64,000 bases of DNA from Schmidtea polychroa. Its lineage: Eukaryota. The position numbers and the translations under genes were made by a program. The first letter of the stretch is position 1; every line of letters starts with the position of its first letter. The notes below the pieces were generated by a model. The model made no database searches, was not told where the DNA came from, and saw only the letters and a program-made list of their open reading frames with translations. The stretch lies in the NCBI GenBank assembly GCA_044892525.1, contig CM097886.1, forward strand, positions 182,764,312 to 182,828,311. Direction: 5' to 3'. Below, piece by piece: positions 22,310 to 46,876 of the stretch.

Positions 22310-23065
22310 TTGAGAATGTTACCAAGCTCGAAGTCGTCTCTCAAACCCTGCTTCTCATGCTCAGATAAGAATTCTATAATCAGGGATTTGCAAGCCCAGA
22401 TCGGTCGATACAAGAAAGCGATCGACCATCTGGAAGGTACATGGTTCAGCCCAGTACAAATGAAGGAGGTACAAAAGAAATTGTACCGAAGCGAGCACTG
22501 TCGCGACGCCTTAATAAGCGAGAGTAGGGCCCAACGCAGTCTTATCAAAGAGCAGTCCGAGGCTCTACACAAGGTCTACGTACAAGCGGCAGCAACTAGA
22601 AAGATAGTGAGTATACCTATCAATGGAGCGGACGACCTTTTCCCCGTCCATCATGAACTTCCTTCCAATTCGTCATCTTCGGCTAAGAAGCCCTGCCGGG
22701 AATGCGTGGAAGCCGATCTCTCTCCCAGGTCAACCATAGTGTCTCCCATTGGAGCCCAGAAAGGGTTATCATCGACCGCGTCTTCCTCTGTCGTACTATC
22801 AAACACCCTGATTGTTCCAAAACCCAAGCGTCGACAGTTGTCCAGAGCTGAGCGTAAAAAGCGTCAGCGCGAACGAGCAATCGCCAAACAAAGTGGACTA
22901 TCTGCCGAGCTCTCCAGTACTTCGAACGATCCCCCTGTAACGATCGATTTAACCGTAGGGATCCCAGGGCGAATCATCTCCGCCGCTGGTGTAACTTGGG
23001 AGGAGAATGCCTCCGAATTCTTCGAGCTGGAGGAGCTGTTAGCCGACGCAGAATGGGAAAAGTAA
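22310..23065 (+). CDS. LTR-encoded 251-aa protein of unknown function (coiled coil, two CxxC, basic NLS-like stretch)
   Basis: Open in both LTRs with identical peptide; KPKRRQLSRAERKKRQRER; AATAAA at ~23202. Confidence 0.65.
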   Translation: MRMLPSSKSSLKPCFSCSDKNSIIRDLQAQIGRYKKAIDHLEGTWFSPVQMKEVQKKLYRSEHCRDALISESRAQRSLIKEQSEALHKVYVQAAATRKIVSIPINGADDLFPVHHELPSNSSSSAKKPCRECVEADLSPRSTIVSPIGAQKGLSSTASSSVVLSNTLIVPKPKRRQLSRAERKKRQRERAIAKQSGLSAELSSTSNDPPVTIDLTVGIPGRIISAAGVTWEENASEFFELEELLADAEWEK

Positions 23066-23870
23066 AGCTCTCAATCCAATGCAACTACATCGATCATGTT
23101 TAGTAAATTGAACGATTCTGACTTATATGTTCTCGTAAACCGTCTTCCCTTGATTTATATTAGTCCTGTAGTTTTAACTGTATAGCGTACTATGATAGTA
23201 GAATAAAGAAATTTTCGTCATTTCTTATTGTTAGTTTTTGTTTGATTAGCCATTGTAAAGGTTCAGAGTAGTTTTTACAACCCAAGCGCAAACTTTAGTT
23301 CGAAAGGCATTAGACAATCTGTATATAACTCGGTGTCAGGTAGGGAAGGAAATGGTGGAGTGATCAGACGTAAGCCCTTCCATCGGCAGTCAGAAAAAGG
23401 AAGTCGAGGCCTCAGTAAGGAGTAGTCCTAAGGTAGGGGCTCACCTGCTTACTGGTGTCTCGCCGGCATAGCACATTTCCAACGTGGAGCAATTCACGGG
23501 TGCTATGTTGGAGTACAGGTTGTGCGGGGTCTTGCTCCGGATTGACGTAAGCACACTTAGCGTAAATGAATGGACACTCATCTCCTAGACAGGTGCGTAA
23601 ATGAGTTAAGGTCAATCAAGCACTACCCCAGCATGATTTTTGGGGGCTCAGCCGGGATTTATTATTGAATTTCCGTCGAATAGTGTGAATTCACCGGGAT
23701 TATGGATTTCAATTGATTGGCGAAGACAAATTGACTAATGCTTAGCGAATCTTATTATAAAACCACGATTAGGAAATAATAAAACTAAAGATACAAATAA
23801 AGTAAATTTAATAGTGGGGAAATGAGATAAAAGTAAAATAAGTTATAACGATCTTAAAAAGAAAAAATGC

Positions 23871-24416
23871 GTGATGAAACAACCATTAATTAGCTGTAGA
23901 TTATTAAAATATTTTCTTTTCCCAATAGATATGACGGAATTCGCAGAACAGATTCAACAATTAATCAATTTCATTAATATAGAAAACGACCATATTAAAA
24001 CACTCATACAAAAAAGAGAACGAATCAATAGCATTCTACTCCAAGCAATCGGACACACACCAGTCGTACCTAACCACGTGTTAATGGCCGCAGGTTTAAG
24101 CCGTCCAGAGGGTAAAATAAATCACGAAACGGTATATCAATGGTATGTAGAAAGACTAAAAAACCCGGCCCTGAACATAGAATACGAGCGAATAAAAGAT
24201 CAGTTACATACAATATCAGAGGCAATTGAACAAAGGATCCAAGAGAAACTCGCTGAATTACGAACTTGTCAGTCTTGCCACCTTCGCCCTATACGCGTAC
24301 TGTTCTTGCCTTGTGGACACCTCAGTCATTGTGAAGAATGCGTACAAGATCTGAAACGATGTACAATATGCAAACATGAGATAAAAGAAACCCATATGGT
24401 TTATTACGGTGATTAA
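23871..24416 (+). CDS. LTR-encoded coiled coil plus C-terminal IAP-type RING-HC protein (putative E3 ligase, no BIR)
   Basis: CQSC..PIRVLFLPCGHLSHCEECVQDLKRCTICKHEI matches the IAP RING pattern; followed by AATAAA. Confidence 0.88.
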   Translation: MMKQPLISCRLLKYFLFPIDMTEFAEQIQQLINFINIENDHIKTLIQKRERINSILLQAIGHTPVVPNHVLMAAGLSRPEGKINHETVYQWYVERLKNPALNIEYERIKDQLHTISEAIEQRIQEKLAELRTCQSCHLRPIRVLFLPCGHLSHCEECVQDLKRCTICKHEIKETHMVYYGD

Positions 24417-25056
24417 AAGGACTAAAAAGATGTGTTAATGTGTATGTGTATCGGATCAATAATGACAGTTAAAGATGAATGTATGTAATTTTAAGTGTAA
24501 AGTAGCATTAATGTTTAGTTTTAGTCTCATGATTAATAAAAGTTTTGTTGTGAATTGAATATTTTATCTTTTTTAATTATATTTTTTTTTGAGATCAAAT
24601 GGAGAAAAATAAATTTAACGTGGAATTAGTCCCAATATAGGATATAAGAGTACAAAATGAGCCACCTTCGGGCGGTACGTCCTATCATCAAAGCAACCCA
24701 TTGGGAGGGGATAACCGATCAACCCAAGTGAGGAGCGTAGGGCGGGGTACCATCGCAAATGATGAGAAGTTTCTGCGGTGTGACTGATCACCACGCCAAT
24801 GTGGAAATGGATCATCGCGATCGTCGTGCGTTTCGAGCAAGGGGGGAAAGGGGAACACTCCCAAGCGGTAAAGATTAAGTCGACAAATTAACAAGCAGAG
24901 ACGGAGAAATGACAATTTAGGGTAGAAGAAGGAAAAGAGAAGTAGAAGCATGCAGATTGAGAGATATTAAGACCGAGTTGTGAGAAGTCCAGCCGGTCAG
25001 GATAATGAAGATTGAGCTGTTGAAAAATGCCAGCCAGTCGTAAAGGCCTAGAAAAT

Positions 25057-25263: not shown

Positions 25264-26541
25264 AGTAAGACAGAATATTGAAGCTAGCTAGAAATGAATT
25301 GAACTAAATACGAGAATTCAAAGGTAGAGAGGACTAAACGAGCTCGTGATAGATGATAATAAAGCGTTAATGATAAAGAGAGATAGGGAAAGGAAAATAA
25401 ATTAAGAAGAGAGGGAAAAATAAAGAATAAGCGAGGATGACGATTAAGAGAATAATTAAATAATTAAAGGGATCCCAGTGGAGTAGAGAAACTCCGCAGA
25501 ATTTTTTTTGGTTTAACCGGGAAGATGATTTTTATTGGGTCTAGAGTAGAACCCAGGGAGAAAACAACCGACAGACAAGTAAAATAGCGACGACAGCGCC
25601 AGAAAATTAAGGATAAAGGGGGGTAATAAGCAGTGACCGACAACGACCTATTCATATTATAAGTATTAAAGATAGATGATTATTACGACTCTATAGATAA
25701 TTGTTACTACCCCATATAGATAATTCAAAATCGACGAAAAATACGGGCTGATGGGAAATTATAACCCGCGGAAATAATGGTATAAAGAATAGGGGAAGCA
25801 CAAACAGAAACCTAAAAGGTGTCTGTGTTTGAATGTTGCAGAAAGAATGATGAAGTCGTGTATGCAGATGCAACACGAGATCATTTTTTCATTTTAGATA
25901 GCAAACCAATCCAGTCAACCAAGCCAATCCAGAACCTGCACAAAAGGAATTCGAAGAAACCAACAACCAACCAGAGATAATCCATTCAGAACCCGCTCAA
26001 TAGGAGTAACACAACCCGAAGATTGTAATAACGGAAGACGATACAGATAACGACATCTCCAACTTCGAACGAATCACCGATATATTCAGCCTCGTTGTAT
26101 TAACAGCCATCAGCCAAGGACTCCTAAATCTCCTCAGAATATCATTAGTAGAAGCGTATAGAATATTCTTCGAAGGAAACACTATCAGAACAGAACTCGC
26201 CCAATTCGGTAGCCGCTAACCGTAGAAAACCCACGAGAAAAGACAGAGAAGCGTAAGAAGGAATCACGGATAAACCCAGCCTTAGATCTTCAAGTAAGCC
26301 AGGAGACGTATTATTTTCAGGAGACGAATTAGAACAACTCAAAAGAGGACGATCAATTAGACATCAGAGAGGGATATCACAAGGAGCAAGAAGAACCAAC
26401 AAAATACCAATATACGATCAAGAAAACCCCACAACCGGATATACGCCCAGTCGATCTAGAAGCAGAGATAGCCTATCCGATATCACAAACCACCTAACTG
26501 CGTCAACAGAAGCACTATCTGCCAATAGCCGGAGTACATCG

Positions 26542-27264
26542 TTGGATAATTTGAAAGAACCGATAGAAATTCAAGAACCAATCATGACGAGTGTGGTAAA
26601 AACCGACGAGTATAAGGAAAAATTTAGAGGTGAACCGTTCAACGGAAATGCAAACAAGTTGGCAACGTTCATAACCAACTTCGAAGTCTATATCGATGTG
26701 TGTGGATGGACATCCGAAGCAGTTAGTAAAAGGATGCCGTTGTTTTTGTGCGATAGCGCATTAGAAGTGTATTTAGAGGCTAAAGAAAGAAATACGAAAT
26801 TGGATAAATGGGATGATATCAAGACATTCCTGAAGAAAACATTTGGAGCTAGCAAACCAATAAATCAAGCACTTGGCGAACTGGCAAATAGGAAACAAAG
26901 AGCAAATGAATCAATTACATTATACGCCAGCGAATTACGGAGATTAGCAAAGAAAGCAATGAATGGAAAATTGCCAGAGGAAAATTTGATCAGCTATTTC
27001 ATAGAGGGATTACGCCGAGAAGTGAGAGCATCTGTAGGATGTCAAATGTGCGCTACATTAGAAGAGGCCATAGATTGGGGCACGAGATGTGAACTCCATC
27101 TTCCAGCACAAATGAATATTATGCAAGAAGATGGGAGGATAGCGACAGCCATAGTAAAAACTGATAATGGAGATAGCAACAACCAAGGACCAAAAATGAA
27201 CCAATTTATACACCGGAGCACATCAAATTTTCAAACCACCACAAGGACGATCAAATGGGAATAA
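26542..27264 (+). CDS. gag: Gag capsid domain (frame open from 26257; likely ATG 26584); upstream Gag region decayed
   Basis: FNGNANKLATFITNFE...LFLCDSALEVY...RKQRANESITLYASELRRLA...FIEGL fits the retrotransposon Gag capsid pattern. Confidence 0.85.
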   Translation: MDNLKEPIEIQEPIMTSVVKTDEYKEKFRGEPFNGNANKLATFITNFEVYIDVCGWTSEAVSKRMPLFLCDSALEVYLEAKERNTKLDKWDDIKTFLKKTFGASKPINQALGELANRKQRANESITLYASELRRLAKKAMNGKLPEENLISYFIEGLRREVRASVGCQMCATLEEAIDWGTRCELHLPAQMNIMQEDGRIATAIVKTDNGDSNNQGPKMNQFIHRSTSNFQTTTRTIKWE

Positions 27265-27334
27265 TAGTGATCGCAACAACCTGAATAATGGAAACAATTT
27301 TAATAATCGACGAAATACGAATAATAACAAACAG

Positions 27335-27487
27335 TGCCGAACATGTGGTAAATCAGGGCATTGGGACAGAGATTGTTATAGAAATGCAACGTGTAATCGT
27401 TGCGGACGACGGTGGCATACGGAGGGTATATGTCAAGCAAGAGCGTGTTACAACTGCGGACAATCAGGACATATCTCGAGAGAATGC
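27335..27487 (+). CDS. Three CCHC zinc knuckles (nucleocapsid), in frame with the 3148-aa ORF; absent from the ORF track because there is no start codon
   Basis: Manual translation CRTCGKSGHWDRDC / CNRCGRRWHTEGIC / CYNCGQSGHISREC; the frame is open from 27200. Confidence 0.92.
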
Positions 27488-27580
27488 CGAGAAAGAAACC
27501 AACAACAACGACAACCTCAACGAAATAATAATTATACACCAAATCCGCAACGACAAAATAACCTCAGTGAAGGAAAACAA

Positions 27581-30500
27581 ATGAACGTCATGCAAGAAAT
27601 TTCTCAAATGAAACAGATGATGCATCAATTGATGCGACCCAGATCAGAACCGGCACCTCAGCAAACACAGAATATACGTATGATGAGAAGCACCGAAAAC
27701 ATCAACGACTACGAGAGACAGCAACACGCGCAAGATTGGCAACGATTGCAAGCTGAGGAAGAGAGAATAAAGCAAGAACGCAACCAGCAACGACAAGAAC
27801 AACCATTTCGAATAAATATGCTGAAACTAGTAAAAGATATGAAAGATCAATATTGTTACAACTATGGGAAAAACCCAATAGGAGTACCCATAACTGAACC
27901 AGAAAAAGTGAAAGAAACAACAACGGAAATTCGACCAGAAAACTCAACAACGGTACTGAAAGGAAACCAAAGAATTCAGAAAATATTCTGGAAAAAGATA
28001 AAAGATAAAATCGAAAAAGAACATGACAAAGAGAAAACGGAGGTAAAAGATGAAAACAACAAAAATAAAGAACAAACCAGTCAAATAAGCCACGAAATGT
28101 TACAAGAATTGGAATCCGAAGAAACAACGATATTCGAAAATAAGCAATTAAAAAGAGTACCAAGGATGAGAAACTTACGAATCAACATGATGAAAAGGAC
28201 AAAAGATACGTCGTCATCAGATGAAGACTATGTGAGTAGTTTGGGTGGAGAAATACTACAACTAAACGAAGCTAGCGAACCTCCCAAAGGGAGAATTCAA
28301 GAGGAAGAGAGTGAAAGCGATGTAACCAGCGAAAGTGAGGACGAGGATATCGAAATAAAATTGAGAAAAGAAAGGGAGGAAGCGATAAAGGGAGTAGCTG
28401 AAATACTCCCAGTAGTAGTGAGGAACCAAGAGTTCATCGATATAATACCATTTAGACGATTCATACAGAAAGTGATGAAATTGGAAAGAAACGAGAAAGA
28501 CCTAATACCAAGCGAGGAAAAGTCGATAATAAAAAAGTATATGGAGAAAATGAAGCAAGCCGATACCACGCGGTATGTAATAAAAATCGGAACGAGTAAA
28601 GGGCTCGAAAGAATATGGATTAAAAATACCGTCACCGACGAACTTTTCGACTGGATACGAGAACATTTAGGTAGCTCGAGGAAAAAGGAGTACCTATATC
28701 AACATCAAGGAGAGCAGATTAAACCGGATATGCACTTGGTGGATGCACTAATATGGCCAGGAGAAACGCAAATATTAAAGCTGCATAAAGAAAAGCAAAC
28801 CGCCAACACCTATGAATGGGCAAAAGACGCTAAGGCCGAATACGACTTTAACATCAAACTGAAATTAGAACAAATAAAACAGTGTACTTTGAGACGAAAT
28901 CTGGATAAACTCATCAAACAAATCCAAGAACAAGTGGAAGATAACTGGGATTTACTCATAGCCAGACGAGCCCCAGAGATGCACGAACTAATGAGCAGAT
29001 TGCGCGATACAGAATTACTCAGAATGAGTGATTGGAGAACCATAAATTTAATCCATAAATATGGAAGGTTAAAAGAGACGCAACCACAGAAGCTAGAAAT
29101 AACCATATGGTTACCGAACGAGGAGAAACGACGAATGAAAATGAGTAATCAGAGCACGGTGGACAACTTGGTATCAAAAATAAACCAAGAAATAACGGAA
29201 AGGGTGCAACGGGAGAGTGATGATGGTATGATAGATGATGTAGTCATGATGTACGATAAAATAATACTACGAGCTGAGGACGACACCTCGTTGAGTGAAA
29301 TGGGCATGTGGGACGATCATCAAATAATCAGAATAGTACCAATGGATGAATTCCGAACGAGGGATATAACCTATCAAAAGGAAATACGAGATCGGATGAA
29401 GACGTTATATCAAAAATCAGTAGAAATAACTGAAATCCACCAACAATGGTTAAAAGAAAAGGAACTACAAGGAAAAATAACGAAACTAAGTACCAGATCC
29501 TGTAGACGAACCCCATGGGAAAGGGTATGGAACGCAGAAAAAAAGGAATGGGAAATCCGGAGAGGGATCTTCCTAGAAACAGATATCGAGGAGACGGATG
29601 AAGAGCCGGGGGAAGAGGAAGACGAACCTCCAGAGTACGAAGAAGAAGCAATAGAACAGACATCAGATGACGGGAGCGAGACGGATGTCACATCAGGAAG
29701 CGAAAATGAAGCCAGACATATCCATGCGATGAGAAAGAAGGAACGTGAATATGCCGATATAGACGGTGATGAGGCGAGGGAAGCGAGAGAACGAGAAGAG
29801 AAGGAGAGATATAAGCAACTAGGCGATATCTTAGAAATGGGGGCAAAGAATCAAAAAAGGCAAGTGATAGCACTGGCAAACTTCATCCTAAAAATATCAG
29901 ACAATATCCAGTATCTGAGAGAGATAGTAAAGACTATAGAGGAATACCGACAATATAATGAATGGTACCCAGAACAATTGGAGCAAATCATTGGGAAATG
30001 GCGAAACCACGAATGGTCACAAGACACCCAAGAAAGATATCGAATTCGAATTAAATACCCAGATAAAAATGTCGAGGAAGTAGAGGTACATCCAACCACA
30101 AAAATCAGAGAATTAAAAAAGAAATTGGCATATGAAACTCCATTCCATCTACAACTACAAGGAAAATCACTAGATGACAACGCAGACGTCGGGATAACAC
30201 CCATGAGGTTGGGAGAGACAAATGTATTGACAATGGCAGAAACATTGGGGAAACCGATAAAACGGAAAAGCAACAGTAGTAAACCAACAAAGGGTAGTTT
30301 GAGTACCCCAAGCCCAAATAAAGCACCGAGTAAATCAAATGAAACCGAGGAGGTTGAAGAGATTATCCTAGAAGATAGTGACGATGAACCAGGAGAAAGA
30401 ACGCCACTATTAGTGAGATGGCCAACGGGAGCCGAGATCTGGACAACAAGTAGACCGTCGACGAGTTATCAACAACCGGAGAAACTAAACATCGAGGGAA

Positions 30501-33500
30501 TCATCGACAATACGACAGAAAGAGAAACAGATGAACAATTTAGGAAACAAAGAGAACCAACAAGAATAACTCCGGAAGGGCAAACCGATAAAATAATAGA
30601 CGAATGGAATGAATGGCTGAGAAATAATGACAGTTCATTGCCCAGAACAGATAATGAAAGAAACCCGAATCACGAAAATACAAGAGAAGCCGGAACAACA
30701 ATGGAAAAACGGACTAAAGGGAGACCCAAGAAACAAGGGGAAAAACCCGAATTTAAAACTAAGGAACAAATAAAGCAAGAACAAGGACAAGTCAGATTAG
30801 AAAAGTTAGATAAAATAGTATGGGATCTAAAGGAAGCCCAACCCACGATTGAAAGAGGAGAAAAGTGGATACGGGAATTAATAAAAGATATGTTAATAAT
30901 AACGAACCCGCAACTCAGACGTCTATGGCAACGAAAAGTAGCAAGCATGGAAGCTAGACAGCTATGGCACATCGTGTCAGGGATAATCCCAAAGTTAATC
31001 AAGGAGAAAACAAAAACCACTAAAACGGATTGGGATGAAACGAGGAGAGTAATCGAACAACTCACAACGAATGCAAACGATGATGAACACCATCTAGTAG
31101 TAATAACCTATTTGATGTATAATTTGATGGGATTAGCTGCAAGAAAAATACCCAATAAACAATTCGCAAACCACGTAGAAATGACAGTAGCAATCATAGA
31201 AAATACTATCGAACCACATATTATCCGTGCCGGAGGATGGAAGAGACTCATCCAAGCGCCACGGAAAAACGAACAGGAAAGATCAATGCAAGTCAGATTG
31301 AAAAAGTTGCTGAATGAACTGGAATGGGAATTACCAATGAAAGATCCAGCCAGCAGAAAAGCGTCAATAAACTCGTTAATGATGACTATGATGATATGGA
31401 TGTTATGTACCAGCGGAGCAACAGGCTTCACGATCTATGATTGCGATAATTCCGTAATGAGGGATAGATACTCACTGAGAGACATCGAGGAATGTAGACA
31501 AGCTTCACCAAATAAATTAGATGTCGTGAACAAAAAGGTCTCATATCACGTGTATCAAGAATCGGATTTCATCAGGACACTGGCAAGGGAGTGCGTAGTA
31601 TCGAAACACGCGTTGGCTTATTACTGTGGACAATATTCATACTCAACTCTCATACTACCCGGATTGGATAAAGAAATAGTGCCCATACAAAGAGAGGATT
31701 GCAAAGAACTGTTTAGAACCGGAGCGATGAGGATCCGAGACGGAGTAACAATACACGGACAAAGTGGAATGATCAAAACAGAAAGCATTTACGTAGCCGG
31801 ACGCGTAAAATCAACTGACGGAACATGTAATGGAGGTACGTATACGATCAGGGGAGAGGCGATATCGGGAGTAGTAGTAATCGAGTCATATACAGTTGAG
31901 TTAAAAGAATACGAAGCACAATTTGACGCCAATAATTATCAAATGAAGACCAACCCAGCATGTAGAGCTATGGAAAACGTATGCAAGACGGGGGTTTCGA
32001 CCATAATATATGAAGCTAACACCCAAAAATGCCGACTTCAATTGTTGAAAAGTGCTCTGTTCAACGAAGTAAAAGGGGAAATTTATGAGAACGAAGACGA
32101 TGAAGACGGAGATGGAAAAGTGAGAATGCGAAATGGAAAACCAGTACCACCATCGCCCAAAGAAAAAAGGCTCACAACACAAAAAACACCAACGGCACTG
32201 ATCACAGACGATCCGGACCTAGGCATGAGATTCATCAGAGGGAAGGAGACCACCAAATGCGATAGTATCGTCTACAAGACCAACTACGCAGGTATCTACA
32301 TGTCACGGCAGATAATAGATAGAGCAGTGGGAAAGATAGCCACAGAGGACGTCAAATTGTACCTATATGCTAATAACAAAATGGATTTTTTATTCCATCG
32401 CGGACAAACGACACTGCAAAAAGTATACTACGATCTTATACAAAACGATTGTTCATTAAATAAAGAGATACTGAAAACAAAACTAGCTATAGCGATAACG
32501 CACCCTGATAATACGATGCCATCACTCCCATTACCGGATGGACATTTTGGTAGGATGGTGGGAGAAGTGATGTATACATATGCGTGCACTAAGACGTTTG
32601 CACGAATGCCAGAAAAACCCACGATACCACCAGGGAAATGTGCAAACGAGTTGGAAATTCGCTATAAAGGACAAAATCGATTCGTCCAACCAGTTACCAG
32701 AATTATGAACCCATTAGGTTTCTACCCAAATCTCTTTAACTGTTCCAATGCGTACGGACCATTGTACGAGAGACCCGATGGGAAATGGATAATGTTACCA
32801 GTGAGGGCCACAGTGGAGGAACCCAAGAAGTTTGGATTAATAGAACTCGCTACGGAGCAAGATTTCAAGCCCATAGATGTATCAAACGGAGGCATGTATT
32901 CAGCAGCGGATCTAGAAACAGCACGGCTAAACATACTTTTCCCAGCCAGACGAGAATCAATATTATCAAACATGGTCACAATAACGGGGGGAACGAACTA
33001 TCAATCAGGTCCAAATTATGAACTACTACTATCACCAGAACATTTCCAACACGCAACGTCAAATATGATGAAGGCAATGTGGGGAAGATTCTTAGTATTC
33101 GGACAAATGATGGCAGGAATATTGGGAATCATACTCATAATTCAAATTGTCAGAGTAATATTGACACAAATGTTAGCCTGTTTCGATATATACAAAAGAG
33201 AAAAGAAAGTAAATTGGAAAATGATAGTAGGGTTTCTACCATTTTTAGCAAAAACCATGGTATTACATGGTCACTCAAAAGATATTCATCGAATAAAGCG
33301 ATTGATCAAAATATTAACCAAGATTAAAGGAACCGATGAGGAAATAGGTAGACGATTCCGAAAAACCATGTACGACGAAGCAACGAGAAGACAACTGAAA
33401 AAGAACAAGCCAAAATTCTTAGATCGATTCAGAAGTCAATCATCTAACAGCGATAGTGACGATGACGACGAAGGGAACCACAAATATCCGTATCCCAGCG

Positions 33501-36500
33501 GACATCCAAAGGAAAAGCAAATTGAAACCGCACCGTATTGGGAGAAGGATAAAACAAACACCTGGATAGCCAACGGAAGTTATATCCCACCGGACATCGT
33601 TGGACAACAAGCAGCCCTGACCATGACACAAAATATGTATCCACAATTACCCAATCAATCCGGAATGAATTATATGCCGACGAGGAGAACCAGAAGTGTA
33701 GATCAAGCGGACGATGTACGGACAATAGCAGCAATGAGTTTACCTGGAGGTCCGGCAGTAACAGTCATGATCCAAATCAACGGAAAAGAAACAAATGCTA
33801 TGATCGACACCGGAGCTAACGTATCAGCAATAGCAATTAATCAAATTCCCAGCAGATATTGGAAAGATATCGAGTCAACAACAATCCACATCATAGCATG
33901 CAGTAAAGAAACAGTAGACGTGGTCGGAAGATGGTGGACCACCTTAAAATACCAAGATAACGAAATTGAAACGTATTTAGCAGTAATACCAAAACTAAGT
34001 GTACCATGCATAATCGGAACAGATCTAATGCCCGAACTACTAAAAGAAGTAGTAATCGATTTAACAACAATGTGCCTAAAGGATAAAACCGGCAGAATAT
34101 GCACAATGAATGCTATAATCAGATGTCCAGAAAAAATAATCGTACCAGCAAAATCACAGATGATCTGTCAAATAAAAGTAGACACGGGAATGGAAGGGGA
34201 AGTTATTTTCGAACCAAGTAAATCGTTTGAAAAACGACGAGAATTACCGCTAGCAAGAGAAATAATAACAATAAATCAAGAAGGAATGATACTGATCAAC
34301 ATCACGAATTTCGAAGAGGAAGACAAAATCATCTATGAGAATGAAAAATTGGGAAAATTGACCCCAATGATGGATATAGAACTACCAAAAGTGACCAACG
34401 ACACAACCAAAAACGACGAATTATGGACAATCGACAGTACATTGTTAACAGCTGCCGAAAAGAGAAAATTGCACCGATTGTTAGTGGAATACAAAGATAT
34501 ATTCGCCATCTCAGATTTGGATTTGGGTACATGTGATGTCACCCTACATGCAATTCCACTGATAGATGAAACTCCAATCGCATTAAGACCATACAAACTA
34601 GCAGAAATGCAAAAAGAAATAGCTGAAGCAGAAGTGCAAAAGATGCTAGATGCAAAAGTAATCGAACCAAGTTGCTCACCTTGGCAGTTTCCAGTGGTCA
34701 TGGTGAAAAAGAAAGATGGCACGCAAAGATTCTGTATAGATTATCGAAAATTAAATGCAGTAACAAAGAGGGATACCTATCCATTGCCAGACATTAATGA
34801 AATGTTACTCATGTTGCAGGGGGCAGCATATTTTACTTCTTTAGATTTAAAAAGTGGATACTGGCAGATTAAAGTCAAAGATGAGGACAAAGAGAAGACC
34901 GCTTTCACTTTGGGGCGAGATCTATATCAGTTCAGGAAAATGCCATTCGGACTAACTAACGCACCAGCATCATTTCAAAGGTGTATGAACTTTGTCACTC
35001 ATGGAATAAAACAGTGTATGGTATATATTGATGATTTACTAATATATTCAGCGACTTTTGAACAACATCTGGAGGATATCCGAAATGTATTTATTCGATT
35101 ACGACAATGGAAACTCAAACTCAAACCTTCCAAATGCGATTGGGCAAAGGAAAAGGTTACGTTTTTAGGACACATAGTGTCAGCCAAAGGAAAAGAGCCA
35201 GACCCAAGAAACATCGAAAAAATAAAAACATGTCCAGCACCAAAAACTGTCACCCAAGTTCAGGAATTTCTCGGACTATGTGGATACTACCGTAAATTTA
35301 TCAAAAATTATGCCGGAATTGCAAAACCAATCCAAGAACTGGTAAAGAAAGACATCTCATTCAGTTGGGGAAAAGAACAACAGGAGGCATTCGAGACGTT
35401 GAGAGATAAATTGATTGAAGCACCAATCCTCGTACATCCGGATTTCAAGAAGCCATTTCTATTGGCAACAGACGCAAGCGGATATGCGGCCGGAGCAATT
35501 TTAGGCCAACTGGATGACGAGGGAAAAGAGAGAGTAATTGGATATTACAGTCGAACATTCAAAAAGCATGAGAAGAACTATTCGGTAACAGAAAGAGAAG
35601 CATTAGCTATAATACAAGCCATCAAACACTTTCGATATTTACTATGGGGACATGAGATATGCATAACCACAGATCATCAACCATTGGTGTGGTTAGGGCA
35701 ACATAAAGAAGCGTCAAGTAGACTAATGAGATGGGCCATGCAATTACAAGAATACTCCCCATTTATAAAATTCAAAGCAGGAAGAGCAAATGCCAACGCC
35801 GATTGTATGTCAAGATTTATTTTTCCAGATTTGGTGGATTCGGAAATGCAACGCATATGCTTAATAGTAGCGGAAGATTTGGACTTTTGCCAACTGCGAA
35901 AGGACCAACAAGAAGACGCAGAATTAAAGCAAATTATCGATTATGTAAAAACAGGAAAAACCGAAGTGTATGCGAAAGACCAGAAATTAAAAGAACATAT
36001 GGATAAACATCGACATCGATACATAATAGATAAAGATTGGTTGCTAATAATGGATGGCGAAAAACGATTAATGTGCATACCGGAAAACAGACGAAAAGAG
36101 TTACTAACGCAATATCACGATGGAAGATTGGGTGGACACATGTCATCAAAAAAGACTTTAGCAAGAATGAAACAGAAATATTTTTGGCCTGCGCTAACGG
36201 AAGACGTAACCGAATGGGTGAAAAATTGTCTAACTTGTGCAACCAGGAAGAATGCTGGATCGAAATGGAAAGCGCCGTTAACGCCAATGCCAGTACCGAT
36301 AGAACCAATGACAATGATATCAATGGACGTAGTCGGTCCATTACCCGAATCGGATAAAGGAAACGTTTATATTTTGGTAATTACGGATTACCTCACGAAA
36401 TTCCCAGAGGCATTTGCTATGCCGGATCAAAAAGCTAAAACAATCGCAAAAATCTTGGTAGAAGAAATATGTTGCCGATATGGAACGCCGAAGCAAATAT

Positions 36501-37027
36501 TAACAGATCAAGGCACAAATTTCATGAGTGAGATCATGAGCGAGGTGACCAACTACTTCAAAATCGCAAAGTTGAGAACATCACCGTATCACCCTCAAAC
36601 AAACGGGATGACGGAAAGATTTAACGGAACACTTATACAAATGCTATCAAATTACGTCGACCGTCACCAACGAGATTGGGACGAATACATAAATTTATGT
36701 CTTATGGCTTATAGAATGTCAATTCATGCATCAACAAAAATGAGCCCATTCAAATTAATGTACGGAAGAGAATGTAACATGCCAATGGACCTGGAATACC
36801 AACCACCGATATCGCAATATATGGAGATAGACGATTATGTCACAAAATTCAAAGAAAGAATGCAAGAAATTTGGGAAACTGCGGGATTAAATATCAAGTT
36901 CTACCAGGAAAGTTATAAAGACTTACACGATCGAAAGAAAAACGTGAAGCAACATACCTTTCAAACAGGTGATTGGGTAATGATAGAAACACCAGAATTG
37001 ATTCCAGGAACCACGAAAAAATTATAG
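27581..37027 (+). CDS. pol: Polyprotein: Ubl x3, Bcl-2-like region, Env-like glycoprotein, protease, RT, RNase H, integrase
   Basis: PR IDTGANVS (~33806); RT YRKLNAVT, LDLKSGYWQ, MPFGL, YIDD (~35024); RH TDAS...TDHQPL; IN HHCC plus D(SMDVVG)-D(LTDQG)-E(MTERFN). Confidence 0.95.
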   Translation: MNVMQEISQMKQMMHQLMRPRSEPAPQQTQNIRMMRSTENINDYERQQHAQDWQRLQAEEERIKQERNQQRQEQPFRINMLKLVKDMKDQYCYNYGKNPIGVPITEPEKVKETTTEIRPENSTTVLKGNQRIQKIFWKKIKDKIEKEHDKEKTEVKDENNKNKEQTSQISHEMLQELESEETTIFENKQLKRVPRMRNLRINMMKRTKDTSSSDEDYVSSLGGEILQLNEASEPPKGRIQEEESESDVTSESEDEDIEIKLRKEREEAIKGVAEILPVVVRNQEFIDIIPFRRFIQKVMKLERNEKDLIPSEEKSIIKKYMEKMKQADTTRYVIKIGTSKGLERIWIKNTVTDELFDWIREHLGSSRKKEYLYQHQGEQIKPDMHLVDALIWPGETQILKLHKEKQTANTYEWAKDAKAEYDFNIKLKLEQIKQCTLRRNLDKLIKQIQEQVEDNWDLLIARRAPEMHELMSRLRDTELLRMSDWRTINLIHKYGRLKETQPQKLEITIWLPNEEKRRMKMSNQSTVDNLVSKINQEITERVQRESDDGMIDDVVMMYDKIILRAEDDTSLSEMGMWDDHQIIRIVPMDEFRTRDITYQKEIRDRMKTLYQKSVEITEIHQQWLKEKELQGKITKLSTRSCRRTPWERVWNAEKKEWEIRRGIFLETDIEETDEEPGEEEDEPPEYEEEAIEQTSDDGSETDVTSGSENEARHIHAMRKKEREYADIDGDEAREAREREEKERYKQLGDILEMGAKNQKRQVIALANFILKISDNIQYLREIVKTIEEYRQYNEWYPEQLEQIIGKWRNHEWSQDTQERYRIRIKYPDKNVEEVEVHPTTKIRELKKKLAYETPFHLQLQGKSLDDNADVGITPMRLGETNVLTMAETLGKPIKRKSNSSKPTKGSLSTPSPNKAPSKSNETEEVEEIILEDSDDEPGERTPLLVRWPTGAEIWTTSRPSTSYQQPEKLNIEGIIDNTTERETDEQFRKQREPTRITPEGQTDKIIDEWNEWLRNNDSSLPRTDNERNPNHENTREAGTTMEKRTKGRPKKQGEKPEFKTKEQIKQEQGQVRLEKLDKIVWDLKEAQPTIERGEKWIRELIKDMLIITNPQLRRLWQRKVASMEARQLWHIVSGIIPKLIKEKTKTTKTDWDETRRVIEQLTTNANDDEHHLVVITYLMYNLMGLAARKIPNKQFANHVEMTVAIIENTIEPHIIRAGGWKRLIQAPRKNEQERSMQVRLKKLLNELEWELPMKDPASRKASINSLMMTMMIWMLCTSGATGFTIYDCDNSVMRDRYSLRDIEECRQASPNKLDVVNKKVSYHVYQESDFIRTLARECVVSKHALAYYCGQYSYSTLILPGLDKEIVPIQREDCKELFRTGAMRIRDGVTIHGQSGMIKTESIYVAGRVKSTDGTCNGGTYTIRGEAISGVVVIESYTVELKEYEAQFDANNYQMKTNPACRAMENVCKTGVSTIIYEANTQKCRLQLLKSALFNEVKGEIYENEDDEDGDGKVRMRNGKPVPPSPKEKRLTTQKTPTALITDDPDLGMRFIRGKETTKCDSIVYKTNYAGIYMSRQIIDRAVGKIATEDVKLYLYANNKMDFLFHRGQTTLQKVYYDLIQNDCSLNKEILKTKLAIAITHPDNTMPSLPLPDGHFGRMVGEVMYTYACTKTFARMPEKPTIPPGKCANELEIRYKGQNRFVQPVTRIMNPLGFYPNLFNCSNAYGPLYERPDGKWIMLPVRATVEEPKKFGLIELATEQDFKPIDVSNGGMYSAADLETARLNILFPARRESILSNMVTITGGTNYQSGPNYELLLSPEHFQHATSNMMKAMWGRFLVFGQMMAGILGIILIIQIVRVILTQMLACFDIYKREKKVNWKMIVGFLPFLAKTMVLHGHSKDIHRIKRLIKILTKIKGTDEEIGRRFRKTMYDEATRRQLKKNKPKFLDRFRSQSSNSDSDDDDEGNHKYPYPSGHPKEKQIETAPYWEKDKTNTWIANGSYIPPDIVGQQAALTMTQNMYPQLPNQSGMNYMPTRRTRSVDQADDVRTIAAMSLPGGPAVTVMIQINGKETNAMIDTGANVSAIAINQIPSRYWKDIESTTIHIIACSKETVDVVGRWWTTLKYQDNEIETYLAVIPKLSVPCIIGTDLMPELLKEVVIDLTTMCLKDKTGRICTMNAIIRCPEKIIVPAKSQMICQIKVDTGMEGEVIFEPSKSFEKRRELPLAREIITINQEGMILINITNFEEEDKIIYENEKLGKLTPMMDIELPKVTNDTTKNDELWTIDSTLLTAAEKRKLHRLLVEYKDIFAISDLDLGTCDVTLHAIPLIDETPIALRPYKLAEMQKEIAEAEVQKMLDAKVIEPSCSPWQFPVVMVKKKDGTQRFCIDYRKLNAVTKRDTYPLPDINEMLLMLQGAAYFTSLDLKSGYWQIKVKDEDKEKTAFTLGRDLYQFRKMPFGLTNAPASFQRCMNFVTHGIKQCMVYIDDLLIYSATFEQHLEDIRNVFIRLRQWKLKLKPSKCDWAKEKVTFLGHIVSAKGKEPDPRNIEKIKTCPAPKTVTQVQEFLGLCGYYRKFIKNYAGIAKPIQELVKKDISFSWGKEQQEAFETLRDKLIEAPILVHPDFKKPFLLATDASGYAAGAILGQLDDEGKERVIGYYSRTFKKHEKNYSVTEREALAIIQAIKHFRYLLWGHEICITTDHQPLVWLGQHKEASSRLMRWAMQLQEYSPFIKFKAGRANANADCMSRFIFPDLVDSEMQRICLIVAEDLDFCQLRKDQQEDAELKQIIDYVKTGKTEVYAKDQKLKEHMDKHRHRYIIDKDWLLIMDGEKRLMCIPENRRKELLTQYHDGRLGGHMSSKKTLARMKQKYFWPALTEDVTEWVKNCLTCATRKNAGSKWKAPLTPMPVPIEPMTMISMDVVGPLPESDKGNVYILVITDYLTKFPEAFAMPDQKAKTIAKILVEEICCRYGTPKQILTDQGTNFMSEIMSEVTNYFKIAKLRTSPYHPQTNGMTERFNGTLIQMLSNYVDRHQRDWDEYINLCLMAYRMSIHASTKMSPFKLMYGRECNMPMDLEYQPPISQYMEIDDYVTKFKERMQEIWETAGLNIKFYQESYKDLHDRKKNVKQHTFQTGDWVMIETPELIPGTTKKL
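31367..33270 (+). CDS. Envelope-like glycoprotein domain inside the polyprotein (chuvirus-G / class III-like)
   Basis: Internal signal segment SLMMTMMIWMLCTSGATG, then FTIYDCDN...YSLRDIEEC; Cys-rich ~550-aa ectodomain; C-terminal WGRFLVFGQMMAGILGIILII TM segment. Confidence 0.75.
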
Positions 37028-37429: not shown

Positions 37430-40429
37430 CCCATATTATTTACCATAACAGATCATTATGGAGACACACCATTACATAAACTCATGAAAGTGGGTAACAA
37501 CGAACAAATACTAGAGACAATAGAAGCATTTCACGACTGCAAGAGATCAACAGAACAAGAAAACAACCAGGGTTACACACCATTAATGATAGCAGCAAAC
37601 AGAAGCAAAACAAAAGACATTATAATCGCATTACTTGACACCGGATCAAAGATAACCACACAAGATCACAATCAGAAGAACGCGCTGCACCACGCAATTG
37701 AAGGGAGGAGTTCCGAAGCATTCACGACGTTGATGGAACTACTAGCATATGAAGATAATCGAGAAGTCGGAAACATGTATGACGGTCTATTAACAGCAAT
37801 CAAAGAGAAATTGACAACAATTACCGGAATATTGATTACATGGAGAAATCCAATCAAAAATGATTACATGATCGACGTAAACGAAGCATTCACAAGAGGG
37901 GAAAACACGCTTATGAGAGAAGCCATGAAAGGACATCATTTATTCGAAATCCCAAATCAATTAATGGAGCGAGGAATAAAATTCACAAACCATAAAGACG
38001 AACAGCTATTAAAAAAGCGAACTGATACATTCGAAAAATCCATATTCCAATTCGTTAACCAAACACGAAATAAATATTGGGAAACGGTAAGTGTACTATA
38101 TATGATGGACACAATGAACAACATTCGCGAGAATTACTTAGATATTATTCAAACACTTACAGCGGAAGAACGAATCAATAATTCAACCAGTAAGAAAACA
38201 AAAATAAAGAAAGGAACATCAAAAGAACCAAAGTCGCAAACGAATCAAATTGCAGCAAATAATGTCAGCAAAACGAAACCAAGAAATTTAGATCAAGAAA
38301 CAATAATACGCAAAGCGAAAGAAGTATTCTTTGAGGAAATGCTAGAGTTATCAGACGAAATGATATTGGCTAAAATAATAAAGACCGTACACACATACGC
38401 AAGGAATCAAACAACAGAGTTGGATATCGGAAAAATCAAAACCTTCATGCCACGAGCATTTACCATGTTAACCAAGGATCAAAGAACGCCGTTACAACAG
38501 GCAATACTAGCAGCAAAGGAAAACCGAGCAATAACGATAATAAGAATCCTCAGAGATTTGGGCAAGGAAACCAACACGAAAAACGAACAAGGCGAAACCG
38601 CCATGATGTATGCAGCTATAACAAAAATACACCCAAAAACACTCCATATACTACATCAATCAGGATCAAGACTGGATGAAAAATCAACCGAAGGGAACTC
38701 CACAATGGACTGGGCAACCATACAGCCGAACCTAGAAATGATCAGGTTCATATGCAAAAACGCGACAAAGGAAGAAGTTGAAAATATTTGCAAAAACACA
38801 TCTCATTTTCAGTGGAATACGGTACGGGAAAATCTAGAAGCCATGAAATTATTATTAACATGGAGAGTACCACAGAGTAATAAATATGCGATAAACGTAA
38901 ACGAATTTTATGAGAACGGCGAAAACGCAATGGTCAAAAACACATTAACAAAAGGGGGGACACCTAAAATCATACTAATTGTATTGAATAGAGAAGATCT
39001 GAGATTCACGAAAAACCCAAACGAACATCAACGAATTGGAAAACACCGCCGTATACAACTGAGAGAACTAGTGAAGGAATGGAATCGGAAAAGACACGCA
39101 GCAACCGGGAGAAAAGAGTTCGAATTCGAGGCTAAACTAGCAAGAAACAGAGTACTAACAGCATACCGAAGATTATTAAACGATATAAATGTCGAGGACG
39201 ACATTTTAAACGACAGCGGGGGAGATAAATTCGATGATAATGACGGAAAGGGTCGAAAAGAGGATAAAGAGAAAAGAAAACCGGAAGAGGATAACCCGGA
39301 AAACAAAGACCCAGGTACGGGAAAGGACGGAAACAACCCGGGAAACAAGACGAAAGAGGAGGAAAAACCGAATAATGGAAAACAGAGGGTATGCCTACCT
39401 TTCACCAACAAAGAAATAGAAACAAATATGATACTAATGATAATTGTCCTAACCATGATAGAATTAGTAACAGCCCATGGAGAGACGAGAACGTTAAAAG
39501 AGACCAAAGAAGCAGAGAACCACGACAACAAAAAGGAGGAGCTGAAGCCAGAAAAGAAAAAACAAGTACAAGAGCAACAATGGGATCTGAAGGAGGAGTG
39601 GGATCTAAAGGAAAGATGTATACTGGGAAGATGCATGTCTAGAGCATATCGGAGATTAGTGTTAATGAACGAGGACACAGAACCGATAACGGAAGTGGGA
39701 ATACAAGAAGCATACCAACACCGGAACGGGAAGAGAATAACGAAAGTTAAATGGAAAGAGGTGCACCTAGGTAAAGGAGGTGAAGTAGTGATAACACAAC
39801 TCCAATCAAGGAAAGAACACAAAGTATGTATTTCAAGGCTAGGACCAGGCGAAGACTGTTTACAATATGTAACACAGCAGCAACCGCCAAAGGAATACAC
39901 GGTTTGTATCGTGAGAAAAAGACCAGAAAAGGAATGCCGACGATATCCTGGGAAAAGGGGGAAGAAAAGAAAGATCAATGACGGAGAAGACGAGGAAGGA
40001 AAACGCCAGAAGGTCGATGAGAAAAACCAAGATAATTACGTATCAGAAGAAGAAATGGAAAAAATACAAAAAATGGCAAAAGAAGGGATCAATGAGGAAA
40101 TAACAAGAATACGAGGGTTGGAGAAAGGTAAAAGTCAAACAGAGAAAGAGGGAAATGCAGAAACAGCGAGTACAGTGATAAACAATGGAAACTCAGAGAT
40201 CATCAGCGTAAAACAGATGATATGGATCAGCGGAATAATAATAACCGGAGCGTTCATAACTATTACGGGGGGGACGATAAAAATAATCCGAGATAAACAA
40301 CAGCGTAATAAACTCGAAATGATCAGAGCCAGAAACTTTCAACATCAAGTAAAAAGGCCCAGTAAAATGAGTCAGGAACAGTGGATGGAGGCCTGGAAGA
40401 CGCAGTGCCCTCCAAATCCACAAATATAG
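37430..40429 (+). CDS. Ankyrin-repeat protein with C-terminal membrane module, in frame after TGA 37427-37429
   Basis: GDTPLHKL lies upstream of the called ATG; GYTPLMIAA, KNALHHAI, RTPLQQAI, GETAMMYAA; hydrophobic MILMIIVLTMIELVTA and MIWISGIIITGAFITITGG. Confidence 0.85.
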   Translation, partial: PILFTITDHYGDTPLHKLMKVGNNEQILETIEAFHDCKRSTEQENNQGYTPLMIAANRSKTKDIIIALLDTGSKITTQDHNQKNALHHAIEGRSSEAFTTLMELLAYEDNREVGNMYDGLLTAIKEKLTTITGILITWRNPIKNDYMIDVNEAFTRGENTLMREAMKGHHLFEIPNQLMERGIKFTNHKDEQLLKKRTDTFEKSIFQFVNQTRNKYWETVSVLYMMDTMNNIRENYLDIIQTLTAEERINNSTSKKTKIKKGTSKEPKSQTNQIAANNVSKTKPRNLDQETIIRKAKEVFFEEMLELSDEMILAKIIKTVHTYARNQTTELDIGKIKTFMPRAFTMLTKDQRTPLQQAILAAKENRAITIIRILRDLGKETNTKNEQGETAMMYAAITKIHPKTLHILHQSGSRLDEKSTEGNSTMDWATIQPNLEMIRFICKNATKEEVENICKNTSHFQWNTVRENLEAMKLLLTWRVPQSNKYAINVNEFYENGENAMVKNTLTKGGTPKIILIVLNREDLRFTKNPNEHQRIGKHRRIQLRELVKEWNRKRHAATGRKEFEFEAKLARNRVLTAYRRLLNDINVEDDILNDSGGDKFDDNDGKGRKEDKEKRKPEEDNPENKDPGTGKDGNNPGNKTKEEEKPNNGKQRVCLPFTNKEIETNMILMIIVLTMIELVTAHGETRTLKETKEAENHDNKKEELKPEKKKQVQEQQWDLKEEWDLKERCILGRCMSRAYRRLVLMNEDTEPITEVGIQEAYQHRNGKRITKVKWKEVHLGKGGEVVITQLQSRKEHKVCISRLGPGEDCLQYVTQQQPPKEYTVCIVRKRPEKECRRYPGKRGKKRKINDGEDEEGKRQKVDEKNQDNYVSEEEMEKIQKMAKEGINEEITRIRGLEKGKSQTEKEGNAETASTVINNGNSEIISVKQMIWISGIIITGAFITITGGTIKIIRDKQQRNKLEMIRARNFQHQVKRPSKMSQEQWMEAWKTQCPPNPQI

Positions 40430-40953: not shown

Positions 40954-41019
40954 TCAAGGCCTAAAATTAAATGTAAATAACTGTAAATAAATATCGAACC
41001 TGTATCGATAAGAAATTAT

Positions 41020-42426
41020 ATGTGTATAATTGTAGACATGGATAAACAAAAGAGAGAAGAGTTCAACGAAATCATCGAGTTAGTCAGAGATTCCGCAGCA
41101 ATCAGAATACACAAACATGTCATGTGTGGAATATGTGAAAAATTATTAAAAGAACCCCATCAAACCCAATGCGGATGCAGAGTGTGCAAAGAATGTATAA
41201 AAGAAACAATAAAAAACCGACCACAGTGGTGCCCGATATGTAAAGAGACACTGATATCAAGTTTAGAAGATACTAATGAAGACAAAGCCGCGGTAAAGGA
41301 CATGTTGAACACTAATCTGGGATGTAAAAATACCCCATGTGAATGGAAAGGATCAATATGGAAAGTGAAACAACATCTGGTGGAATGTATGTACAAAGTC
41401 AGCCAGTGTGAACGATGCCAGAAATTAATTCAAGCTAACGAAGAAAAGGAACATCAAAGTCAGTGTGAAGAAAGGTTGGAAAGATGCGAATATTGCGGAG
41501 AAGTAGACACATGGAAAAATCTCACCATCAAACATCACAATGTCCAAGAGGAAAAGGTATGTGCAGAATTCTGTGGTGAATGCCCGAACGGATGCAACAA
41601 AGGGGGAGTAATAAAATTAGCCCAGCATCTAAAAGAATGCGAAAGGAAAAGAATGATATGCGTACTAGGCAAATGGGGGTGTCAGAAATTACTACACCGA
41701 GGAGACTTGCCACACCACTTAACCGAAAATGTAATAACTCACGCAGAGATGTGGTCAACTGCGCTACAAGACAGTGAAGAGAAAGTGCGACAAATGGAGA
41801 TAGAAATAACCTCACTGAAAGCATTAGTAAAAGAACTACTAGAAGAACGAGAGGCTTTTGAACAAGCTCGAGCAAACATAAAAATGCAAATTAATCGAAT
41901 GGAAATCAGTAACGATCAGGCCAAAGTACTGCATCAGAAAATAAATGAAATCAATCTAAATGAGGTAATACCAACTGCACCGTATATATGGAAAATAACG
42001 GGAGTAAAAGAAAGAGTACGAAAAGCAAAAACCGGAGAAGATACAAGACTAACAAGCCCCGCATTCCATTCCTGGAAAAACGGATACAAAATGAAAATGA
42101 AGGTATATCCCAACGGGGACGGGACCGGATTAGATACGCATTTTTCGATCTTCTTTATGCTCTGCAAAGGGGAGTATGATGAAATATTAGAATGGCCATT
42201 CCAGGCAAAAATCGATATTACACTAATGAACAACCAAAGTATACACGAGCAAAGCTTCAAAACAACGGGGAATCAGATAGCTTACCAGAGGCCCCTCAAC
42301 GAAGAAGGAGCAGCAACAGGAGCACCGACGTTCATTTTACAACAAAGGGTAGAAGATATGGCGAGAAATGATACCGTATATATCAAGATGACGGTTCGGA
42401 GGGAAGGAAAGAGTAGAACCGAGTAA
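41020..42426 (+). CDS. TRAF: Full-length TRAF-like protein (RING, TRAF zinc fingers, coiled coil, MATH/TRAF-C)
   Basis: CGICEKLLKEPHQTQCGCRVCKEC...CPIC; C-X-N..CEW, HL.EC fingers; YIWKI...SPAF...GYKM...YPNGDG...THFSIFF..KGEYD.IL.WPF. Confidence 0.93.
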   Translation: MCIIVDMDKQKREEFNEIIELVRDSAAIRIHKHVMCGICEKLLKEPHQTQCGCRVCKECIKETIKNRPQWCPICKETLISSLEDTNEDKAAVKDMLNTNLGCKNTPCEWKGSIWKVKQHLVECMYKVSQCERCQKLIQANEEKEHQSQCEERLERCEYCGEVDTWKNLTIKHHNVQEEKVCAEFCGECPNGCNKGGVIKLAQHLKECERKRMICVLGKWGCQKLLHRGDLPHHLTENVITHAEMWSTALQDSEEKVRQMEIEITSLKALVKELLEEREAFEQARANIKMQINRMEISNDQAKVLHQKINEINLNEVIPTAPYIWKITGVKERVRKAKTGEDTRLTSPAFHSWKNGYKMKMKVYPNGDGTGLDTHFSIFFMLCKGEYDEILEWPFQAKIDITLMNNQSIHEQSFKTTGNQIAYQRPLNEEGAATGAPTFILQQRVEDMARNDTVYIKMTVRREGKSRTE

Positions 42427-45480: not shown

Positions 45481-45977
45481 TGTTGGGCTGAGTCGAAAGC
45501 TTGATCGTCAAATTTAGGACAGATAAGACGCGAACAAATAAAATAAGACCACAAATTGCTAAAATAAATAAATCAAGAGACAAAAGAAACAATAACGTAA
45601 AATATTAAGATTAAAACAAAAAACAAAAAATAGAAAAATTAAAATAAGGTAATAAGATAAGGAATAAAATGACGAAAAATGCAACAAATAATGAGGAATT
45701 TAAGAAACAAATAAAAAATATATTAAAATAAAGAAAAATAAGGAAAAACAACCAAAGAAATAAGAAAAACAAATAAATTTAAAAGTTAAAGCGGTACTCA
45801 ATTTTGATTGGTCCGCATAAACAAAAAATTCCTATATAAGCAAACGGCAAATTCAATATAGTTACTGTTTAACAAACACCATTACAGGTAAGCTCATAAT
45901 TTTAAAAACTGACTGTTTAACAAACACCATTACAGATCAACACTCAACCATTACAGACGATCACCGACGTACAACCT
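45481..45977 (+). repeat. 3' LTR of the giant element, left piece (interrupted by the nested element)
   Basis: Matches 19817-20313. Confidence 0.92.
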
Positions 45978-46876
45978 TGTTGTGGTTGGGGCAGTCCGAT
46001 CTGGTATTTTGGCAATAGAATTTTCAGTAAGAGCATCGTCTAGATAACCGCCTTTCATAACATGACATAAGAGAACTTTATTGCGTTGCGAATTATGATT
46101 TTCGACAACTTTCATTCCATTCATTTCTTGGAATATTGGTTTCTGGTAATCAAATATACATTTGTTGCTAGTATTAACTGGCTTCCAATTAATTAATTCC
46201 TTATATGTATATAATGGTCGCATTTTTCTACAAATCGGCTGATAAAATTGAAAACTTATAAAATAAATCATAAAGAGTTAATGTCAGCTTTTATTTAATT
46301 ACCAAAATTTTTTTTGGAATATATAAACAAGCAAGGAAATCTTTTACAAAATTTATACATATAAGTAAACAAAATTACAAAAAATACAAAATTATATCAT
46401 TCGATAAAAAATAAACAGATTTTTAAAAATATATAATTTAAAAAGCTTACGATTTTATAAAGTTCGCGTAAGAATTTCACATAGTCAATTACTAATAAAT
46501 AAATGCAAAATAAACAAATTTAGGTTTTTATATTATTGTTAGGATTTGTTCCGTATTTCGCGAATTGTAATGGATGAGGGTGTTGGTCTATGAGAGCCAA
46601 CACTAAAACTATTGGGAGCCGAATACAGTTTATCTTGATAATGATAACATGGCATCGAATTTGCTTTACTCTTCTGAGATTGATTAATAGAGCCTGATTG
46701 ATAAGTAGAAGTATTAGCTGATCGCACGAATTTTGATTGACTGTTATTGTGTTCTGTTTGGTCCTTAGTCGCTGGTGACCGCGCATTTATATATATAATA
46801 TAATATCGTATAATATAATATAATATAGTATAATAGGTATATAGATATTGTTAAGGCCGTGTAACGGCTCACTACA
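45978..46876 (-). repeat. 3' LTR of the nested element
   Basis: Differs from 53037-53936 at two positions seen by eye (one substitution, one 1-bp indel). Confidence 0.95.

Follow-up and report, generated by a model that had tools for sequence, protein, structure and literature searches.

The 64,000-nucleotide stretch of Schmidtea polychroa DNA analysed here (the window) carries a Burro-type giant Ty3/gypsy retroelement, so assigned by its features, with Burro1 compared by its published description. In this family the envelope gene (env) follows the Gag-side domains and precedes the protease (PR), all within a single frame of about 4,800 residues, and we consider that the polyprotein probably threads the ER membrane in a flavivirus-like manner. 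The envelope protein (Env) is, by its predicted fold, a class III fusogen of the chuvirus G and herpesvirus gB type, and the hydropathy and charge pattern of the chain make it likely that PR, RT and integrase (IN) would remain cytosolic. The features of the element are collected in Table 1.

Table 1. Features of the retroelement in the window (KD, Kyte-Doolittle hydropathy)
Feature	Position	Strand	Basis and remarks
5' LTR	19817..24601	+	at least 4.8 kb; starts TG; 3' end provisional; repeats 45481-45977 and 53933-58230
RING-finger ORF within LTR, IAP-type RING	23826..24416	+	PF13920, E 9.9e-11
Gag capsid ORF	26257..27264	+	Retrotrans_gag, E 2.4e-12; separate frame in window copy only
Main polyprotein frame, knuckles to integrase	27200..37027	+	3,275 aa, stop-free
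Three CCHC zinc knuckles (aa 46-97)	27335..27490	+	translation; zf-CCHC E 2.6e-6, 2 stretches
Ubiquitin/SUMO-like domain	30017..30235	+	PF00240 E 2.7e-4, PF11976 E 0.0085; both below curated cut-off
Bcl-2-like domain, BH2-type GGW motif at end	31022..31240	+	PF00452 E 0.048, below curated cut-off
Internal signal-like segment LMMTMMIWMLCTSGATG, predicted cleavage A-T-G / F	31367..31426	+	hydropathy
Predicted class III fusion ectodomain, starts FTIYDC...YSLRDIEEC	31427..33079	+	551 aa to WGRF, 14 Cys
Transmembrane (TM) helix	33107..33163	+	KD 2.53
Weak hydrophobic, proline-kinked helix after TM, predicted non-spanning	33209..33265	+	KD 1.31, 2 charges
Protease, RT, RNase H, integrase	33764..36595	+	Pfam RVP/RT/RNase H/IN
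Ankyrin repeats and C-terminal part	37430..40429	+	Ank_2, E 1.8e-17
Second signal-like segment (39428-39478), ~245-aa 6-Cys domain, TM-like segment (40217-40267)	39428..40267	+	
TRAF-like accessory ORF (RING + MATH)	40987..42426	+	PF21355, E 8.9e-27
3' LTR	45481..58230	+	split by nested gypsy element 45978-53936 (minus strand); ends short at 58230

The element spans positions 19817-58230, about 30.4 kb once a nested 8-kb element is subtracted, and is bounded by multi-kilobase LTRs. Comparison of the 5' LTR with the two parts of the 3' LTR gives identities of 99-99.9%, from which we conclude that the insertion is young. Neither a target-site duplication nor a PBS was found for the giant element, the 3' LTR of which ends short. 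The capsid of this copy lies in a different frame from the remainder of the polyprotein, and stop codons are present at 37025-37027 and 37427-37429; as a result of the frame switch and the two stops after IN, the copy is unable to make the whole polyprotein. The window element thus belongs to a large Burro-type family, of which it is a young, broken copy. The LTR also contains a 252-aa ORF (22307-23065) with a basic, arginine-rich stretch and no Pfam match, and three 69-nt tandem repeats lie 5' of gag at 25057-25263. Downstream of the TRAF ORF, the segment 42593-45227 holds three accessory ORFs, none of which matched a Pfam family above cut-off; two are coiled-coil-like (360 and 241 aa) and the third (211 aa) has a hydrophobic segment of KD 2.29. 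The nested gypsy element is itself young, having 900-bp LTRs that are 99.8% identical and a 5-bp duplication, AACCT. Its pol ORF lies at 47046-50435. The ORF in the gag position (50411-51790) has a ubiquitin-like domain at its N-terminus (E 1e-8), and an unexplained ORF of 532 aa is found at 51738-53336.

Capsid and knuckles share one frame in all four of the other family-A copies examined (L021, L030, L032 and L033); the capsid frame break is therefore copy-specific, and we reject it as a programmed feature. About 1300 residues of Gag-side sequence separate the knuckles from the Env signal segment, and they include the ubiquitin/SUMO-like domain and a Bcl-2-like domain that ends some 65 residues upstream of the start of Env. 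The Bcl-2 family PF00452 is matched at E 0.0039 and 1.7e-4 in two sister families, again below curated cut-offs, and a profile of the region has Bcl-xL as its best PDB match (E 0.0075). A model of the Bcl-2 fold had a pLDDT of 46 and gave no Foldseek match at E 0.001, though Bcl-xL ranked first. The matches that place ubiquitin/SUMO-like and BCL2-like domains ahead of env are weak but concordant. Two further segments, 28541-28780 and 29075-29350, appear ubiquitin-like by eye, the second being a weak ras-binding-domain match (Pfam E 0.014). On the other side of Env, the DTG motif of the protease is found at 33797, about 200 residues past the TM helix. A conserved block of about 105 residues lies between PR and RT in three families; a dUTPase-like domain was sought there, and the block gave no Pfam or PDB match. 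The ankyrin and C-terminal part is in the frame of IN in copies L022 and L031.

A sequence-only reading of the window had placed a chuvirus-like envelope inside Gag-Pol, describing an internal signal sequence, a Cys-rich ectodomain of about 550 residues from FTIYDC and a TM segment W.RF..FG...AG.LGI, all sharing a frame with the Gag-side domains before them and PR after them. Each of these elements is borne out. The Pfam family PF24664 (Monjiviricetes_fusion) is matched with an E-value of 2.8e-70 within the stop-free main frame, after zf-CCHC and before RVP, RT, RNase H and IN; the ectodomain and the TM helix are where they had been placed, and a hydrophobic segment directly precedes the ectodomain. 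This segment is only moderately hydrophobic in the window copy, its best 15-mer scoring 1.49, with values of 1.5-2.85 in relatives. The 11 relatives for which upstream sequence is available likewise have a hydrophobic segment, with small residues, ahead of the YDC/FDC motif (the boundary in P0016 is unsure). In three families and in P0002, P0006 and P0011, the signal lies 30-80 residues past a BH2-like GGW motif. In Bcl-2 proteins, a tail anchor occupies the position corresponding to the Env signal. Relatives that lack a GGW motif in the 130 residues upstream nevertheless keep the signal, which argues that it belongs to env.

The ectodomain is followed at nucleotide 33080 by the motif WGRFLVFGQMMAGILGI. 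Thirteen cysteines are nearly invariant across 123 aligned Env sequences, a conservation that fits an oxidising, and hence presumably luminal, fold. The ectodomain has a single N-glycosylation sequon, against a median of three in stand-alone glycoproteins, and contains no furin-type R-x-K/R-R site. The weak helix that follows the TM segment (KD 1.3-1.4) is conserved, stand-alone glycoproteins included (median KD 1.29, n = 92), and is flanked by basic residues on both sides. Its proline is present in 14 of 15 long-protein relatives but in only 2 of 91 stand-alone glycoproteins. Taken together, the hydropathy and charge pattern of Env fits a putative type I topology, with a signal, a luminal ectodomain and one TM helix.

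The structure of Env was modelled with AlphaFold from the alignment of 123 sequences, giving a pLDDT of 89. Comparison of the model with chuvirus G and herpesvirus gB, which the sequence-only reading had suggested, revealed class III fusogen similarity: the best viral structure match is a chuvirus-related G (E 8e-40, TM 0.63), and all listed PDB matches are herpesvirus gB, the best with an E-value of 1.7e-13. Superposed on herpes gB, the model gives a Z-score of 11.0 and an rmsd of 6.8 over 405 residues. As the model matches both chuvirus-type G and gB, we conclude that Env is, by predicted fold, a class III fusogen. The missing furin-type site and the listed PDB matches, all to gB, speak against an F-type (class I) errantivirus Env with a baculovirus-F-like fold. 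Chuvirus (Monjiviricetes) G and herpes gB share with the window Env the PF24664 family and a fold match over the whole ectodomain, as well as the succession of membrane-proximal helix, TM and post-TM helix. Sequence identity is low, at 16-20% to the top chuvirus-type matches and 9-12% to gB, and a sequence search of the PDB with env gave no match at E 1. Unlike those glycoproteins, the window Env is encoded inside a polyprotein.

A search of the genome gave 2815 candidate places for the family. Among 74 scored copies, env is free of stops in 73, and the open frame around it reaches at least 4700 residues (4724-4817) in 38. The two sister families, whose env is 37% identical, keep signal, env, TM and PR in one frame; this arrangement was recovered by motif search at 12 of 14 sister-family loci and by eye at one more, the remaining locus being broken. 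Analysis of substitutions among copies, also suggested by the sequence-only reading, points to purifying selection. Between two subfamilies (dS about 1.2), the ectodomain has a dN/dS of 0.03 (0.02-0.05), PR one of 0.04 and RT one of 0.02, and for the same pair the value is 0.01 across the TM and the next helix, where 74 of 75 residues are identical at a dS of 1.7. We judge from these comparisons that Env is under purifying selection similar to that on PR, and that the env layout is real and was functional in the recent history of the family.

With a cut-off of E 0.001, a full HMMER search identified 948 Env relatives. No match came from word-index searches at near length, whether with a single sequence or an alignment, and a search at longer length gave one protein. 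PR follows the env domain in frame in 12 of the 21 database homologues scanned, which were mostly long proteins, and three of these 12 have a Gag marker before env. A tree of 54 rows was built by quick search from a sample biased to the nearest matches, in which one in three of the stand-alone proteins was retained. In it, the 14 env-PR proteins fall within one 18-row branch, separate from the majority of the stand-alone glycoproteins (SH-aLRT 94, not starred). P0063, in which DUF5641 precedes the glycoprotein, groups with the stand-alone proteins, away from this branch. Five of the relatives (P0003, P0004, P0005, P0009 and P0016) have at least two protease-like domains after env. P0007, a Gag-Env-Pol-type animal retroelement protein, is filed at NCBI under a Flavobacteriaceae MAG, probably through a binning error.

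A second cassette of signal, domain and TM segment is present past the integrase or ankyrin part in all six lineages that reach that far. Examples are the window element, L022, L025, L009 and L031 and the proteins P0003, P0007 and P0013, with domains of 240-340 residues. The cassette has a dN/dS of 0.13, or 0.08 in its core, and on these values it appears to be under selection. Its domain differs between the window family and the two sister families. No Pfam or PDB family was found for the second ectodomain; a fibronectin-III lead, with a score under 0.9, was obtained in one sister family only. The polyproteins of L025, L009, P0007 and L022 end in ETRL, ETWV, TIIV and SSRI, respectively, and that of the window copy in NPQI; some ends in the former set resemble PDZ-binding ends.

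Flavivirus and hepacivirus polyproteins use internal signals and stop-transfer helices to alternate the cytosolic and luminal domains of one chain, and the resemblance of the window polyprotein to them is one of logic, without homology. Our reading of its topology uses the Kyte-Doolittle hydropathy scale together with the charge pattern. The internal signal would insert into the membrane while the Gag-Ubl-Bcl-2 portion stays cytosolic, signal peptidase would cut before FTIYDC, and the Env ectodomain would fold in the lumen. The single TM helix would then bring the chain back, the proline-kinked helix remaining on the cytosolic leaflet. PR, RT, IN and the ankyrin part would hang on the cytosolic tail of Env until released by the protease, and the second signal and TM past the integrase would place a further small surface protein on the luminal side. 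Since no stop separates Env from Pol, every Env would carry Pol, and the two would be made in a 1:1 ratio at synthesis.

The sidedness of Pol depends on the post-TM helix, which would put Pol in the lumen if it crossed the membrane. Its KD of 1.3, its two charges, the flanking basic residues and the distribution of its proline make the cytosolic face the more likely location; the proline could merely be inherited. Neither the Gag side nor the stretch between the Env tail and IN holds a segment above KD 1.5. Moreover, there would be no point in a second signal unless the chain ahead of it lay in the cytosol, so that its presence fits a cytosolic Pol; in the pol of the nested ordinary gypsy element, used as the one control, no segment resembling the second cassette was found. 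A bolder extension would make the element an enveloped retrovirus with a four-pass polyprotein split by signal peptidase, in which the Env signal doubles as the Bcl-2 tail anchor so that Gag-Ubl-Bcl-2 is membrane-anchored, Pol is packaged through the Env tail rather than by way of Gag-Pol, and the domain after integrase is a freely swapped surface protein that partners the gB-like fusogen in attachment. We regard this extension as rather doubtful.

The products might instead be separated at the RNA level. Env or Env-Pol would then come from an RNA that is spliced or started internally, with the signal segment acting as a normal N-terminal signal peptide, and Gag or Gag-Pol would come from a transcript that leaves env out. 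Errantivirus env is normally expressed from a spliced RNA, and Gag and Pol in equal amounts are ill suited to capsid building; both points speak for such processing, as do five Met codons in or just before the signal segment of the window copy, any of which could start a separate Env. Most relatives, however, have not retained a Met before the hydrophobic core, and gag, env and pol run on with no separating stop or frame break in 38 of the 74 copies. A further point against this explanation is that synonymous variability at the signal is, if anything, raised (z up to +2.7). As for an RNA signal ahead of env, the lowest synonymous window (aa 1161-1200) was matched by 52 of 300 permutations and is not significant. 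A programmed -1 frameshift ahead of env was rejected, none of six slippery heptamers being common to the subfamilies. No GT..AG skip occurs among the joints listed, 15 of 21, in RNA contigs from four runs, which are uninformative on splicing and expression. On balance we consider RNA-level separation unlikely.

The glycoprotein could also thread the ER without forming infectious particles, its main role being to hold Gag and Pol at an internal membrane where assembly takes place, or to fuse cells or vesicles. A literature search found no particle or infection data, none of the titles listed being on Burro, the single sequon implies few glycans on Env, and conservation is higher in the TM region than in the ectodomain, all of which would suit such a role. 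The whole ectodomain, all of its cysteines included, is nevertheless constrained as strongly as PR, and since an anchor alone would not need a whole ectodomain, we regard this explanation as very improbable. The frame switch and two stops of the window copy might suggest that the gene entered this one copy passively from a chuvirus, or that it is an artefact of the assembly. This idea is refuted by the more than 2500 candidate places in the genome, the dN/dS of 0.03 and the same layout in proteins of other organisms, to which cover in independent runs and the published layout can be added; its probability is negligible. Threading of the ER by an intact polyprotein, with Pol on the cytosolic side, is the reading that we prefer.

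Elements of this kind have been described. In the Burro/GYPSM1 giant gypsy-like elements of planarians, env was reported in 2019 to lie in frame between BCL2 and PR (Arkhipova & Yushenova, PMC6431247). As far as the available parts of that description show, Burro and the window element are both about 30 kb with long LTRs, and have in common a Gag with CCHC knuckles, Ubi/SUMO-like, BCL2-like, ankyrin and MATH/TRAF domains, and an env in frame before PR that matches mononegavirus fusion glycoproteins. The single ORF is of similar size, 4811 residues in the family of the window against 4873 in Burro1 (PMC6431247); Burro is characterised by a single ORF1 of about 4900-5100 residues, and the family has 4724-4817, the window copy being in pieces. 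Retrotrans_gag with CCHC knuckles, the in-frame env, the Ubi- and BCL2-like domains and the ankyrin and MATH/TRAF cargo were all found here. The two differ, on the same partial view of PMC6431247, in that TRAF/MATH forms a separate ORF 3' of the polyprotein in the window element, which also has a RING with no BIR match in the scanned ORFs (short ORFs being only partly covered), and in that Burro env was linked by HHpred to gypsy Env and baculovirus F-type proteins, whereas our model is class III and gB-like. BURRO1 RNA rises on smedwi-2 knockdown, according to the portion available of Li et al. (PMC8532177).

GAG-ENV-POL elements with a gB-type env have also been reported from Platyhelminthes, Nematoda and Bryozoa, in several clades on the pol tree and including six elements in Schmidtea mediterranea, Smed_errantivirus_1-6 (Chary & Hayashi, eLife 2026, PMC13524379). 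From what is accessible of that work, these share with the window element a Ty3/gypsy pol and a gB-type env placed before it. On inspection by eye, the sister families correspond to Smed_errantivirus_1 and _2, and the window env comes closest to _5; among the six Smed_errantivirus rows available it has no exact match, an 11-residue word of it being absent (PMC13524379). Anakin elements, according to the part of the preprint available, have captured the same glycoprotein family, and are BEL/Pao rather than gypsy elements (Dezordi et al. 2020, bioRxiv 10.1101/2020.02.15.950899). The available parts of PMC6431247 contain nothing on topology or a second membrane cassette, and the main text of PMC13524379, as far as available, uses none of the terms 'polyprotein', 'in-frame', 'single ORF' and 'fibronectin'. 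Neither the cassette nor the polyprotein topology was found in the Burro and GAG-ENV-POL literature covered, which is partial, and further papers may treat them.

The layout had been called very unusual, and this holds against textbook errantiviruses but not more widely, since it is published for Burro and for other phyla, and PR follows env in over half of the homologues scanned. As the in-frame gag-env-pol layout is already known for the Burro family, the window copy adds little by itself. The present analysis contributes the assignment of a class III fold from the predicted model and evidence that env and its membrane helices are under strong selection, together with a second membrane cassette, which limits the possible topologies. 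If the polyprotein does thread the ER, host signal peptidase would be the first processing step, and the retroelement would package its enzymes on the tail of its envelope protein, unlike any retrovirus studied.
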